NCBI GenBank assembly: GCA_045580085.1
Contig: JAZNND010000018.1
Span: forward strand, 1,783 to 65,782
DNA from: Eubacteriales bacterium
GTDB taxonomy: Bacteria; Bacillota; Clostridia; Oscillospirales; CAG-272
DNA: 64,000 nt
Reading direction: 5' to 3'
Shown: positions 48,631 to 52,143 of the stretch, piece by piece
Numbering within the stretch: the stretch's first letter is position 1
Layout of the letters: the number at the start of each line of letters is the position of its first letter
Program-made: the position numbers and the translations under genes
The notes under the pieces: generated by a model
Told to the model about the DNA's origin: nothing
The model's database searches: none
What the model saw: the letters and a program-made list of their open reading frames with translations, nothing else

Positions 48631-49245
48631 ATGGAAGAGATCAAGGAAACCGCAGAGCCGCAAGAACAAGAGCTTTTGGTGCCTTCCGCGGGGATCCGTG
48701 TCACACGCATACGGCGGTATGAGCCGACCTACACCGAGGACGAAACCCTCTTGCCCGAAGGGGACGGCGATCACCAACTGCTGTTTACGCCGCATGCGGC
48801 GGAGCTTTTACGGGGCTTAACCGATTGGGGAACCGAAAGCGAGCGTAATGTGATCGAACAGCAAGGCATCATGCTCGGAAAAGTATACCGCACGCCGCGC
48901 GGCTTTACAGGTGTGGTGGAAGAGCTTGTGCTTTCTTCCGCTGTCGGAAACGCGGTTTACGTCGAGTCCTCTCACAGCGAGTGGAGCGAGATGGATCGCC
49001 GCATGGACGAGTTGAACGAACAAAGAGAAGAAAAACTCGTCAAGGTTGGTTGGTGGCACACCCATCCCAATATGTCGATCTTCATGTCGGGCACCGATCG
49101 CCGCACGCAAGCCGATTATTTTTATCAGCCTTGGCAGTTTGCCGCCGTTTTTAATCCCCAGGCCGAGCTTTGGGGAGCCTACATCGGAGAATGCGCCCAA
49201 GCCTGCACGGGCAAATGGATCACGGAAGGAACCGAAACAGAATGA
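48631..49245 (+). CDS. JAB/MPN (JAMM) metallopeptidase, deubiquitinase-like
   Basis: ATG 48631 lies 8-9 nt after AAAGGAG. JAMM motif GWWHTHPNMSIFMSGTD with an upstream Glu (VIEQQG). Confidence 0.85.
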   Translation: MEEIKETAEPQEQELLVPSAGIRVTRIRRYEPTYTEDETLLPEGDGDHQLLFTPHAAELLRGLTDWGTESERNVIEQQGIMLGKVYRTPRGFTGVVEELVLSSAVGNAVYVESSHSEWSEMDRRMDELNEQREEKLVKVGWWHTHPNMSIFMSGTDRRTQADYFYQPWQFAAVFNPQAELWGAYIGECAQACTGKWITEGTETE

Positions 49246-49760
49246 CAGAAACAAGAAAAAGACGTCTCGCGAACGACTACCGCGAGCTTTGCAGTATGAA
49301 AGGGCCGATCATGGATTTTCGCCCTCTGGTGGGTACACCGCCCTATGTCGAGCAGTATGAGCTGACCTTTCATATCCGCAGTATCATCGGTCCCGAACCC
49401 TCCTACCGCAGTGTGCATGTGGTGCGTTTGGCACTGCCTGCCGGCTATCCTCTGGACGGTTTTCCGCAGGTGACCATGGTCACGCGCCCCTTTGTGTACC
49501 ACCCCAACTGGTTCCGCAACGGCAACTGGTGCTTCGGCGGTGCTTCCAAGCACACCGAGGGCTTAGGCAATTTTGTGGTGCGTCTGATGCAGACTTTGCA
49601 ATACTGCGAGAGCATCATCAACGTCGGCAGTCCCGCCAACGGAGACGCCACCAGCTGGTATTTGCGCTATAAGCGCAGCGGCATTTTCCCTACCGACACC
49701 CAAAAGCTGCCCCAACCCAACATCGGCGGCATCATCATCAACAAAAGAAACGATCAATAA
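49242..49760 (+). CDS. E2 ubiquitin-conjugating-enzyme-like protein
   Basis: ATGA overlap with the JAB gene. N-terminal RLANDYRELCS. HPN motif followed by a Cys (FVYHPNWFRNGNWCFGG). Confidence 0.75.
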   Translation: MTETRKRRLANDYRELCSMKGPIMDFRPLVGTPPYVEQYELTFHIRSIIGPEPSYRSVHVVRLALPAGYPLDGFPQVTMVTRPFVYHPNWFRNGNWCFGGASKHTEGLGNFVVRLMQTLQYCESIINVGSPANGDATSWYLRYKRSGIFPTDTQKLPQPNIGGIIINKRNDQ

Positions 49761-49781
49761 TTTATTTTAAGGAGAACGATT

Positions 49782-50060
49782 ATGAACCTTCATCTTACTT
49801 TTATGCATCATTCCGACAACAGCTCCATCGACGTTACCATTGAGGACAACTGGAGTGCCAACTACGCCATCGAAGAACTCATCCGCGAAAACTTCCTCAA
49901 GCCCCTCGGCGATGCCGAAGAATACCGTCTCGTCTACAAAGAAGACCAAACCGAGTTTGGCGGCTCTACCACCTTTGCGCAAGCAGGTGTGCAAGACGGA
50001 AAGGTAATATCCGTCGTCGTCCGTCCTAAAGCGGGCTTCGGTGGGGCTATTTTGGCGTAA
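49782..50060 (+). CDS. Ubiquitin-like (beta-grasp) protein with internal di-Gly and 4-residue C-terminal tail (…GFGG-AILA)
   Basis: 92 aa. Position between E2 and E1. Ends ...VISVVVRPKAGFGGAILA. RBS AAGGAG 7 nt upstream. Confidence 0.65.
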   Translation: MNLHLTFMHHSDNSSIDVTIEDNWSANYAIEELIRENFLKPLGDAEEYRLVYKEDQTEFGGSTTFAQAGVQDGKVISVVVRPKAGFGGAILA

Positions 50061-50107
50061 AGAGCCGTTCGCTCCCCTCGCAGTAGATATCTACAGCTTC
50101 AGGTCGC

Positions 50108-50164
50108 GAACGACACTTTCCATCCAAAATCCCCCACACCGAAGGAACTTTTAAAAGAAACTTT
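50108..50164. repeat. 57-bp direct repeat, copy 1 (inverted partial copy of the Ubl gene 3' end)
   Basis: 56/57 identical to 50179-50235. Its 5' part (50106-50143) is about 77% complementary to 50037-50072. Confidence 0.9.
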
Positions 50165-50178
50165 GCCGAAGGGAAAAA

Positions 50179-50235
50179 GAACGACGCTTTCCATCCAAAA
50201 TCCCCCACACCGAAGGAACTTTTAAAAGAAACTTT
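50179..50235. repeat. 57-bp direct repeat, copy 2
   Basis: 56/57 identical to copy 1. Period 71 bp. Confidence 0.9.
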
Positions 50236-50277
50236 TAAAATGCAAAGTTAAAAACCGAGCAAAACAAAGGAGGCACT

Positions 50278-51579
50278 ATGCCTATCATCATTCATAAACG
50301 GACAGATGCGGACGGCAAGACCGTGGAGGCATCGGAAATCAAAGCACCCATAGACGAAAAGAACGATCCTTTTGCCAGACAAAAGCTGGTTTCTTGGTGG
50401 GATCAGGATAAGATCTCCAAGGCGCGCGTGCTGGTGATGGGGGCGGGTGCCATCGGCAACGAGACCTTAAAAAATTTGGCGTTGCTCGGCTTCAAGCATC
50501 TTTTTATCTGCGATATGGATACCATAGAGCTCTCCAATCTCAGCCGCACGCTCCTTTTTCGCCCGTCGGATGAGGGCAAGGAAAAAGCCGCGGTAGCGGC
50601 GGAGCGTGTGCGTGAGATGTGCCTTGCACCCGACGCGCGCGTGGATTATTTTACGGCGGACGTGATGTTCGGGCTCGGCATCGGCATTTTCCGTTATTTT
50701 GATCTGATTCTCGGTTGCCTTGACAACGATGCCACGCGTTTTTACATCGACCGTTGCGCTACGGTGTTCGGCAAACCTTGGATCAATGCGGGTATATCCA
50801 ATCTGCAAGTGGGATTGCAAGCCTTTTTTTGCGATCAAAACGACGTTTGCTTTCATTGCGGTATGGATGAAGATGTCATCACGCGCGTGATGAGCCGCAA
50901 GGCGTCTTGCGGTAAGACCGTGATCAGCGATCTTTCCGGCGGCAAGGTGCCGACGGTGCAGGTGGCAAGTGCCATCGTTTCGGGCATGCAGACGCAAGAA
51001 GCGGTCAAGTATCTTTCGGGCAAGCAGGTCGCCTTCGGTCAGAATTATTATTTTGAGGGCGTGGGCAATTCCTTCACTGTCTCACGCAACCGCCCCGACA
51101 GCAACTGCCGCCACCATTTGTTCCCGCGCATTCGCGAGGTGAAGGAGCTATATGATATCACAAACGCTTCCACTCTGCGTGAGCTTTTGGAAGCGGCATC
51201 CAAGGCAATCGGGCGCGAGGTAACACTCGATCTTTCGGAAGAATCGGGGCGCGATTTTATCACCCACGCCGATTGCATTTACTGCGGCGCGTCGGTTCCC
51301 ATCGGTTTGCCCCGTTTCCGCTTCCGCGAGGAAATGGCGGTATGCCAAGCATGCCGCACGTCTGCCCCCGATGTTTTCCCGAGCGAGCCTTGGGTTTATC
51401 CCGTATCGGAATACAGTCTTCAAAGCGACGAGTCGCTTTTATCCATGCCCTTATCCTCTCTCGGTATTCCGCCGCTGCATGTGATGCGTGTTTTTGACAG
51501 TGAAGAGAATGTTTATTATATCGAGACTTCGGGTGATTTACCCCTCATTTGCCCCGAAAATTACGGAAAATGCAAATAA
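50278..51579 (+). CDS. E1-like ThiF/MoeB-family activating enzyme
   Basis: VLVMGAGAIGNETLKNLALLG, ICDMDTIELSNLSRT, and CxxC pairs (CFHC, CIYC...CQAC). RBS AAGGAGG. Confidence 0.85.
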   Translation: MPIIIHKRTDADGKTVEASEIKAPIDEKNDPFARQKLVSWWDQDKISKARVLVMGAGAIGNETLKNLALLGFKHLFICDMDTIELSNLSRTLLFRPSDEGKEKAAVAAERVREMCLAPDARVDYFTADVMFGLGIGIFRYFDLILGCLDNDATRFYIDRCATVFGKPWINAGISNLQVGLQAFFCDQNDVCFHCGMDEDVITRVMSRKASCGKTVISDLSGGKVPTVQVASAIVSGMQTQEAVKYLSGKQVAFGQNYYFEGVGNSFTVSRNRPDSNCRHHLFPRIREVKELYDITNASTLRELLEAASKAIGREVTLDLSEESGRDFITHADCIYCGASVPIGLPRFRFREEMAVCQACRTSAPDVFPSEPWVYPVSEYSLQSDESLLSMPLSSLGIPPLHVMRVFDSEENVYYIETSGDLPLICPENYGKCK

Positions 51580-51624: not shown

Positions 51625-52143
51625 ATGGCTGATACCGAATTTGAACTTGACGAATCCAAGCGATGGTTTGTGGAGCTTGGTCGCATCGATCCCATGACGC
51701 GTGAGGCGTTTGCGATGGGAGACCGTGTGATTATATGCCGTTCTTGCAAGATTGTTCACAAGGACTATACCTGGAAGGACAACGGCGGCTGTTGCTCGCC
51801 CGGATGCAACTGCAAGACGAGCGCCAAGCGATTTTTGGCACCGCCCTCTTCCGCCACGCCTGCCTCGCCGACACCTGCGCCGCGCATGGTGGTGCGCGGC
51901 AACCGAACGCCGCCCGAGAATCACGGCCGCATTCAGATTCGTGCGCGGACGGGTGCGGACGGCATTCGCATTGAATCGGCACCGCCTCCCGTGCCGTCGC
52001 CCATTGCGCCGCGCCGTTCGCGCAGCCGAACAGTGACACCGCCTGCGGATGCGGGGCAAAACCGCCGTATCGTGCTCGGCAACGCCGCGCCGCCCGAGCA
52101 TCGCACACCCATCATCATTCGTTCGAGGCATGACGATGACTGA
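51625..52143 (+). CDS. Hypothetical protein: N-terminal Cys-rich Zn-ribbon-like module plus Pro/Arg-rich tail with an internal repeat
   Basis: CRSC-x14-CCSPGCNC. Repeats RMVVRGNRTPPENHGRIQIR and RRIVLGNAAPPEHRTPIIIR. This frame links the flanking genes; other ORFs here are by-products of high GC. Confidence 0.5.
   Translation: MADTEFELDESKRWFVELGRIDPMTREAFAMGDRVIICRSCKIVHKDYTWKDNGGCCSPGCNCKTSAKRFLAPPSSATPASPTPAPRMVVRGNRTPPENHGRIQIRARTGADGIRIESAPPPVPSPIAPRRSRSRTVTPPADAGQNRRIVLGNAAPPEHRTPIIIRSRHDDD

Follow-up and report, generated by a model that had tools for sequence, protein, structure and literature searches.

A dispersed, strand-oriented hairpin repeat as the probable origin of the structured spacer between the Ubl and E1 genes of a putative Bil-type cassette

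Dispersed intergenic hairpin repeats are a known kind of bacterial sequence; the family described here belongs to this kind and has some properties that are unexplained. REP/BIME and ERIC (IRU) elements are non-coding, dispersed, imperfect palindromes in transcribed regions between or after genes, which are sometimes clustered and form hairpins in RNA, as does the present element. With ca. 127 bp, ERIC is also similar in size. Roles in mRNA turnover have been described for REP-type elements (reviewed in PMC3184786 and PMC3479197). Many repeats are fused in frame with chromosomal open reading frames (ORFs), and some extend the 3' ends of protein genes (PMC3184786). Such extension is known for enterobacterial and pneumococcal repeats resembling miniature inverted-repeat transposable elements (MITEs) and for Rickettsia palindromic elements, and it is another likeness to the present element.

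Bil-type bacterial ubiquitination cassettes have separate genes for a ubiquitin-like protein (Ubl), an E2, a JAB peptidase and an E1, and the Ubl precursor is cleaved to expose a C-terminal glycine. Cleavage of such precursors by JAB peptidases is known from related systems (PMC11601596). A cassette of this appearance is encoded in a stretch of 64,000 nt from a Eubacteriales bacterium of the lineage CAG-272 (assembly GCA_045580085.1, contig JAZNND010000018.1, positions 1,783 to 65,782). This stretch is called the window, and coordinates below refer to it. The end of its Ubl gene and the 217-nt spacer between Ubl and E1 (50061-50277) form a long hairpin, for which an original prediction, made from the letters alone, had proposed a structured switch or processing site. 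We consider it probable (roughly 0.85) that this structure belongs, as one copy, to a family of dispersed hairpin repeats, which are non-coding and strand-oriented, and is thus an insertion, not a purpose-built operon switch.

The Ubl 3' end (50036-50072) is complementary to each of two repeat copies in the spacer. The direct repeats were found by repeat search where they had been described (50108-50164 and 50179-50235; 57 nt, 56/57 or 98% identical, 71-bp period). The same search detected inverted arms at 50041-50072 and 50106-50137 (72% complementary, ungapped) and an outer block at 50036-50046 and 50134-50144 (91% complementary). The reported mirroring of the Ubl end is therefore real; it is, however, a trait of the repeat family and not of the Ubl gene. 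In the minimum-energy fold, the RNA from 50030 to 50150 is a single long hairpin spanning 50036-50144, with about 30 arm pairs and a 9-pair apex (-47.1 kcal/mol, z -4.5), and none of 200 shuffles folds as well. The entire spacer folds at -70.8 kcal/mol (z -3.2). All of the seven tail codons of Ubl (FGGAILA) and its stop codon (50037..50060, plus strand) lie within the left arm. The 12-bp palindrome GTAGATATCTAC (50083-50094, plus strand), already noticed in the loop, forms the apical stem-loop GTAG-ATAT-CTAC, and the GTAG/CTAC stem with its CTCG...CTTCRGG flanks is the best-conserved part of the family. Copy 1 of the direct repeat (50108..50164, plus strand) consists of the right arm and a 19-nt tail, and the left arm pairs with it both in the minimum-energy structure and across the ensemble. 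Copy 2 (50179..50235, plus strand) is a spare right half-element, which is not the preferred partner. The right arm is followed by AACTTTTAAAAG. The GC-rich stem with subsequent U-tract of an intrinsic terminator was not found on the plus strand of the spacer. Rfam 15, including the Gut-1 motif and riboswitches, gave no relevant match in 49500-50600 at E values up to 10. The repeats had been described as devoid of ORFs on either strand; the minus strand does contain a GTG-started ORF of 53 codons (50047-50208), which is almost certainly spurious.

In the genus the repeat is abundant, and in the rest of the order its occurrence is patchy. Searching at the DNA level with the spacer sequence returned hairpin-centred matches in 4 of the 36 congeneric genomes first sampled, all of which lack the E1 gene. 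The aligned hairpins share the apex CTCGCAGTAG-loop-CTACAGCTTCRGGTCGCG, and their flanking arms differ yet remain complementary. A covariance model (R1) was built from similar hairpins. It matches the window at 50035-50139 (98.7 bits, E 3e-21), and with the stem at 50036-50144 this is a complete copy (50035..50144, plus strand). R1 matches are found in 86 of 101 genomes of the genus, with a total of about 1,400 among the matches listed (some sites being counted on both strands). Copy numbers per congener range from 0 to at least 37, and copies are often arranged in head-to-tail arrays. A BLAST-level search of the window genome with the spacer retrieves only the spacer itself and no other copy of that DNA. 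There, the family is visible only with a profile or covariance model, which reveals four R1 sites; rplL and groEL each precede one of them. Beyond the genus, R1 matches were obtained for 8 of 150 genomes of the order (five other genera), usually as near-identical multi-copy sets; in G137, near-identical copies at contig ends break the assembly. When 20 copy-carrying loci were compared to Rfam, no match was obtained at E values up to 0.1, except for L10 leaders elsewhere in two of these loci. In summary, there are many non-coding copies at unrelated loci, they have a common fold, and relatives differ in the sites occupied, as is generic for dispersed repeats. Because the same repeat follows many unrelated genes, the view of a Ubl-specific device had to be given up.

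The conserved apical motif also occurs within a different dispersed repeat, of about 270 nt, in G160, a genome from a different family of the same order; copies of this longer repeat are 92-97% identical. This repeat starts with AAAGGGGATGTAAAAAAAG and ends in a terminator-like hairpin with nearly the same word. It was located at ca. 1879-2148 of L079 (reverse strand) and also in L056 and L080-L083.

All tested copies adopt the same long hairpin. The element has a core of about 106 nt and reaches about 110-120 nt with the locus-specific outer stem; the outer stems are AT-rich. Covariation was counted in the 56-row model alignment, using the structure with outer stems included. Standard pairs make up 81.6% of the cells, as compared to 65.6% in column shuffles (0 of 500 reach the observed value) and 32-51% in slid controls, and changes on both sides are seen for 26 of 32 pairs; these figures lean towards the structure, since the alignment was partly fitted to it and its rows are related, but the slid controls are still clearly lower. 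The apical pairs (columns 55-58 / 63-66) are paired in 97.8%.

Genes at element sites were called with a codon log-odds model trained on the window genome. A co-oriented gene is found on the 5' side of the element at 31 of the 33 sites examined, a count that is in part predetermined where the neighbouring genes are convergent. Orientation can be judged solely from sites flanked by tandem genes; here, 16 copies are co-oriented and 1 is anti-oriented, or about 7 to 1 after collapsing some ten orthologous pgk-tpiA sites. The upstream stop codon is within the first 2-26 nt of the element at about 24 of the 33 sites, the 3' end of the element abuts a stop codon at none of them, and just one site is between divergent genes. 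Several copies are located between a stop codon and a separate canonical terminator. Thus, the plus-strand hairpin belongs to the 3' untranslated region of the upstream gene. A T-run (U-tract in the RNA) is missing from most copies; the one after groEL is an exception and is terminator-like.

Homologous cassettes illustrate what the Ubl-E1 junction looks like when the element is absent. The useful loci were found via Ubl homologues, of which nine were retrieved, and not via E1; an E1 protein search gave a single distant locus without an adjacent Ubl gene. The gap between Ubl and E1 is 217 nt in the window, and it is 9 nt in L046-L049 (Ubl 84% identical), 59 nt in L051-L053 (Ubl more distant) and 2 nt in L003 (same order, Ubl distant). 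R1 finds no element in any of these loci; the complementary arms are lacking there, an outcome that the original prediction had itself named as refuting. Among the homologous loci compared, only L050 (Ubl 96% identical) carries the element. Its left half is tandemly duplicated with a 54-bp period, it has no second right arm, and both outer arms differ from those of the window yet remain complementary. Homology between element-free and element-bearing loci stops directly after the GGC codon of G85 of Ubl and resumes near the E1 ribosome-binding site.

L003 (2-1462, minus strand; from G046 of the same order) was the only other Ubl-E1 locus among the 60 relatives first sampled. Its E2-like domain is fused to a long C-terminal region with a proline-rich linker and predicted membrane segments (487+ residues).

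The alignment of the nine homologues and the Ubl of L003 is informative with respect to the C-terminus; A84 and G85 do not vary in it. The motif RPKAG is invariant among the homologues and aligns with the C-terminal AG of the L003 protein, which ends exactly there. The sequences past this motif vary: FGGAILA in the window, GHILA in the 96% identical relative, AREA or AKEA in relatives with 82-84% identity and, in the longest cases, about 60 residues with CxxC pairs. Because RPKAG is invariant while the tails vary, the conjugating glycine is most likely G85 (50034-50036), and everything beyond it would be a tail for removal. The conserved glycine of the family is that of RPKAG and not the GG of FGGAILA, which corrects a reading based on the GG of the tail. 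Tails of 25-65 residues occur in the homologues P0004, P0005, P0007 and P0009, several of which have two CxxC pairs and appear zinc-ribbon-like. These long-tailed proteins would be precursors with a sizeable domain to be cleaved off.

Part of the Ubl tail can be attributed to the element. The codons ATT TTG GCG TAA (ILA-stop) match the conserved element core (family consensus ATTTTGGCnTAA), and an unrelated gene of 365 codons in L031 likewise ends with ILA-stop on its own copy. Of the Ubl end, ILA and the stop codon, at the least, thus appear to come from the element. The codons for FGG, and perhaps that for A, are in the locus-specific outer stem. Here, the pgk-tpiA junction is instructive. 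In four congeners without the element (L091-L094), pgk ends with L-(Q/L)-(N/D)-K-TAA, and the gap to tpiA is 12-17 nt. Many species of the genus carry the element at this position (L016, L024, L032). These genomes retain the native pgk codons (e.g. CTT GAC AAG TAA), and the right arm ends with ...CCATTGTCAA, which is their complement. This comparison indicates that complementarity to native host codons can arise in the right arm. Quasipalindrome template switching is a plausible cause of the mirrored codons, both for LDK of pgk and for the tail of Ubl, and it might also account for the recurrent arm duplications (see below). It should be kept in mind that this is a mutational mechanism rather than an element family and that its action here is suggested by sequence patterns only. 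A pre-existing host hairpin with an invaded loop was considered and rejected, with no such hairpin at four of the five element-free pgk-tpiA sites. The fifth congener, G083 (L090), has no R1 match and has a different hairpin in its 113-nt gap. This hairpin of about 113 nt has the arms ATTTTCAA/TTGAAAAT and lacks the conserved apex. As it escapes R1, the family is probably larger than the model shows.

We propose that, in the lineage of the window, a copy of the element was inserted between Ubl and E1, immediately 3' of the conserved RPKAG codons. The insertion would have been tolerated because the tail that it supplied follows the conserved Gly and is presumably removed by the JAB peptidase. 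A tight junction, which measures 2-59 nt in the nearest loci that lack the element and 9 nt in the closest of them, would thereby have become a structured spacer of 217 nt, and an own ribosome-binding site of E1 would replace the tight coupling of element-free sites, where E1 starts 9 nt after the Ubl stop codon. Prediction on the spacer yielded no plus-strand terminator and no promoter on either strand, and E1 must therefore be transcribed by read-through. A promoter in the spacer that feeds E1 and an antisense promoter were both rejected for this reason; TTGACA/TATAAT-like words in the left arm of some copies were discarded as promoters, being spaced by only 12-14 nt. The hairpin of 39 pairs, which includes the Ubl stop codon, might act as in REP/ERIC, either as a barrier to 3' exonucleases that protects the upstream mRNA or as a site for a double-strand-specific RNase. 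Newbury et al. 1987 reportedly found that REPs inside E. coli operons stabilize the upstream mRNA segment, and Liang, Rudd and Deutscher 2015 reportedly found that REP elements near stop codons can also reduce translation of the gene that precedes them. A barrier or RNase site of the kind considered here would tend to raise JAB-E2-Ubl relative to E1. An influence of the hairpin on Ubl-E1 mRNA stability and on the Ubl:E1 ratio is plausible, by analogy, as something incidental to the insertion. Part of the predicted switch or processing site can be retained, namely that the hairpin is real, stable and part of the Ubl-E1 transcript, where it could plausibly influence mRNA stability or processing in a generic way. 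No support was obtained for a dedicated switch (see below).

Several points count against an inserted repeat with such incidental effects. (i) The antisense strand folds better. The window copy reaches -62.7 kcal/mol (z -7.2) as antisense RNA, compared to the -47.1 kcal/mol of the mRNA strand, and the antisense strand is the more stable one in 42 of 47 copies (Wilcoxon p 3e-8, the rows not being independent). A simple mRNA-stabilizer model does not predict this. (ii) No mobilizing enzyme was identified. A Y1 transposase (PF01797) is encoded in 26 of the 101 genus genomes, many of which are incomplete metagenome assemblies. It is absent from the window genome and from the high-copy genomes G020, G023, G025 and G027, and it is present in G022 and G084, which have zero copies. 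There is no R1 match next to the Y1 genes at six loci. A RAYT/Y1 link was rejected, as copy number, judged by inspection, does not track the enzyme and adjacency is lacking. (iii) A target-site duplication could not be defined, and the comparisons of Ubl-E1 and pgk-tpiA with and without the element show no clear direct duplication. (iv) Many of the sampled sites are orthologous (including the ca. ten pgk-tpiA sites), so that the orientation statistics overstate independence. (v) The effect on the Ubl:E1 ratio is an argument by analogy. (vi) The strong strand polarity and an apex that is conserved across genera would also fit an element with a host function.

Such a function could be that of a module in the 3' untranslated region, as opposed to selfish DNA. 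A protein or RNase would recognize the apex CTCG-NN-GTAG-loop-CTAC-NN-CTTCRGG and control mRNA decay or termination of the upstream gene, here that for Ubl. The apex is indeed better conserved than the stems, is common to several genera and is found even inside the 270-nt repeat of G160. The stems covary, placement 3' of co-oriented genes is strict, and copies follow the highly expressed genes rplL and groEL, the latter copy having a T-run and resembling a terminator. We nevertheless rate this explanation as distinctly unlikely. A regulatory module is hard to reconcile with copy numbers between 0 and at least 37 among congeners and only four sites in the window genome. Orthologous sites differ in the presence of the element, near-identical copies break assemblies in G137, most copies have no U-tract, and it is the antisense strand, not the mRNA, that folds better.

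The latter observation would be accounted for by an element that acts as single-stranded DNA of the bottom strand, being a substrate for recombination or transposition like attC sites or REP/IS200-type hairpins, with its polarity reflecting the direction of replication. Over 47 copies, the mean RNA energy is -45.6 kcal/mol for the antisense and -37.4 kcal/mol for the mRNA strand, and for the window copy the preference also holds at the DNA level (bottom -32.5, top -26.2 kcal/mol). Among the modelled pairs of the top strand, A.C mismatches outnumber G.U pairs by 98 to 35, and A.C on the top strand is G.T on the bottom strand; the other top-strand mismatches are pyrimidine-rich. Docking at stop codons, co-orientation with genes and head-to-tail arrays point in the same direction. 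For attC, the bottom strand is reportedly the better-folding or active one (Bouvier et al. 2005; Escudero et al. 2015). An integron integrase (TIGR02249), however, is not found above the 265-bit cut-off in any of the 101 genomes, the best score being 78 bits for generic tyrosine recombinases. Among the 47 copies, an R''-like core site (RYYYAAC) occurs in four, an R'-like one (GTTRRRY) in none and both together in none. With neither IntI nor core sites, the integron attC reading was rejected. Moreover, it is the ends that are conserved in attC sites but the apex in the present family; the element has no link to Y1 transposases; and copies are dispersed after housekeeping genes instead of being organized in cassette arrays. 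All in all, we regard an element of this nature as quite improbable.

A dedicated Ubl:E1 switch, in which the two copies take turns as pairing partners of the Ubl 3' end and the stoichiometry is thereby set or processing triggered, is very improbable. It draws on the two near-identical right arms and on the fact that copy 2 is a competent partner. The isolated hairpin of the left arm with copy 2 is nearly as stable as that with copy 1 (-44.2 and -47.1 kcal/mol), and when copy 1 is forbidden, 30 left-arm pairs form with copy 2. The latter fold, however, reaches only -56.4 instead of -70.8 kcal/mol, a penalty of 14.4 kcal/mol. At equilibrium, the ensemble has 29.9 expected pairs of the left arm with copy 1 and 0.03 with copy 2. 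The suggested alternative pairing of the Ubl end with copy 2 is thus disfavoured at equilibrium. Furthermore, homologous cassettes do altogether without this spacer, which largely refutes the switch, the same hairpin follows pgk, rplL, groEL and other unrelated genes, and the close relative L050 has a duplicated left half rather than a second right arm.

If copy 2 is not half of a switch, it reads as a recent duplication of the right half of the element (56/57 identical), which slippage or template switching at a long quasi-palindrome probably left behind. Arm duplications recur across the repeat family (C42, L050, L018, L036). The copy after rplL in the window genome has one left arm (two by another count) and three right arms with a period of about 73 bp; those in L050, L018 and L036 have two left arms and one right arm with a period of 53-55 bp. 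The rplL-associated copy (G000 C42:1780-2080, L013) is located 3' of rplL and its terminator and is the second-best copy of the genome. The position after rplJ-rplL is also occupied by an element in another species (L029).

Finally, the view that recombination or inversion among Ubl 3' ends produced the arms as relics has practically no probability left, as the likeness of the reverse-complemented repeat to the Ubl 3' end is all that speaks for it, while the genome has a single Ubl-E1 locus and no other copy of that DNA, Ubl homologues end differently, and the arms match the repeat consensus at unrelated genes rather than other Ubl genes, so that the distribution of the family refutes it.

The genes of the cassette are all encoded on the plus strand. 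The JAB/MPN peptidase gene (48631..49245) is assigned by Pfam JAB (PF01398, 5e-07) and by a Prok-JAB match; from work on Bil/Bub systems (PMC11601596), its product is presumed to be the enzyme that removes the Ubl tail. The E2-like gene (49170..49760) was assigned from the ORF and its translation, which has a YHPN...NGNWC motif; it has neither a Pfam hit nor a PADLOC family. The Ubl precursor gene (49782..50060) has 92 codons with a conserved core ending at RPKAG, and its product has no family hit in Pfam and PADLOC searches. The E1 gene (50278..51579) is of the ThiF family (Pfam ThiF, 2.4e-46) and is preceded by the Shine-Dalgarno sequence AAAGGAGG (50267..50274). JAB and ThiF domains are present, the PADLOC match to BilD is weak (6e-06), and the context may be that of a Bil-type cassette. 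An ORF of 172 codons is found directly 3' of E1 (51625-52143, plus strand) and is kept in the homologous cassette L048 (2146-2721). The pair has a common N-terminal stretch (...DESKRWF.EL.RIDPMTRE.F..GD.V..CR.CK.VHKDYTW.DNGGCCSPGCNC). The protein is Cys/His-rich without a Pfam hit, and it could be a small zinc-binding partner of the cassette. It has a weak resemblance (E 0.13) to an ORF after E1 in L045.

It is tempting to go one step further and to speculate on an undescribed, strand-specific mobile hairpin. Such an element would be propagated or maintained via its bottom strand, would dock at stop codons and would lengthen its stem by templated copying of the last codons of the host gene. 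The enzyme involved would recognize the apex, which several families of the order have in common. In the window, such an element would have rewritten the disposable tail of the Ubl precursor. We regard this proposal as unlikely at present.

With the Ubl-E1 spacer read as an insertion, a tempting regulatory story is removed. For expressing or assaying the cassette, it matters that the Ubl processing site would be after RPKAG and not after the GG of the tail. The family illustrates well how a repeat can be located on stop codons and yet be tolerated, since only dispensable sequence is rewritten. It also breaks metagenome-derived assemblies in this group. Standard models for REP, MITE or attC elements do not account for three properties, namely the strand polarity, the better antisense fold and the mirroring of host codons by the stems, and these could lead to a new mobilization mechanism.

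A comparison with known systems places the family near several of them. Like the present element, attC sites are imperfect palindromes of ca. 60-140 nt (e.g. the 123-126-bp Vibrio VCRs) at the 3' ends of co-oriented ORFs, with structure prevailing over sequence. They differ by having the R''/R' core pair (found in 0 of 47 copies here) and an integrase (none was found in the genomes searched), and the present copies are dispersed after housekeeping genes and conserve the apex. The MIRUs of mycobacteria are similar in being located within operons, in having ends that overlap adjacent genes and in occurring as tandem copies, but they are not long hairpins. Rickettsia palindromic elements are inside genes and are translated throughout, whereas only 3-7 tail codons of the present element are translated. 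With respect to MITEs, the signature of terminal inverted repeats plus target-site duplication was not found; the entire element is palindromic with outer ends that differ from locus to locus, and a parent insertion sequence was not encountered, none having been systematically sought. SPRITE elements are biased towards gene 3' ends, as is the present family. REPs are 20-40 nt long and linked to RAYT, whereas the present element has ca. 106-120 nt with no such link found. In REP/REPIN, a short GC-rich palindrome is preceded by a GTAG-type tetranucleotide, while the present element has GTAG only as part of the apical stem. The family has no sequence relation to REP or ERIC, and it is set apart from both by its strict polarity, its docking at stop codons, the conservation of the apex rather than the ends and the better fold of its antisense strand.

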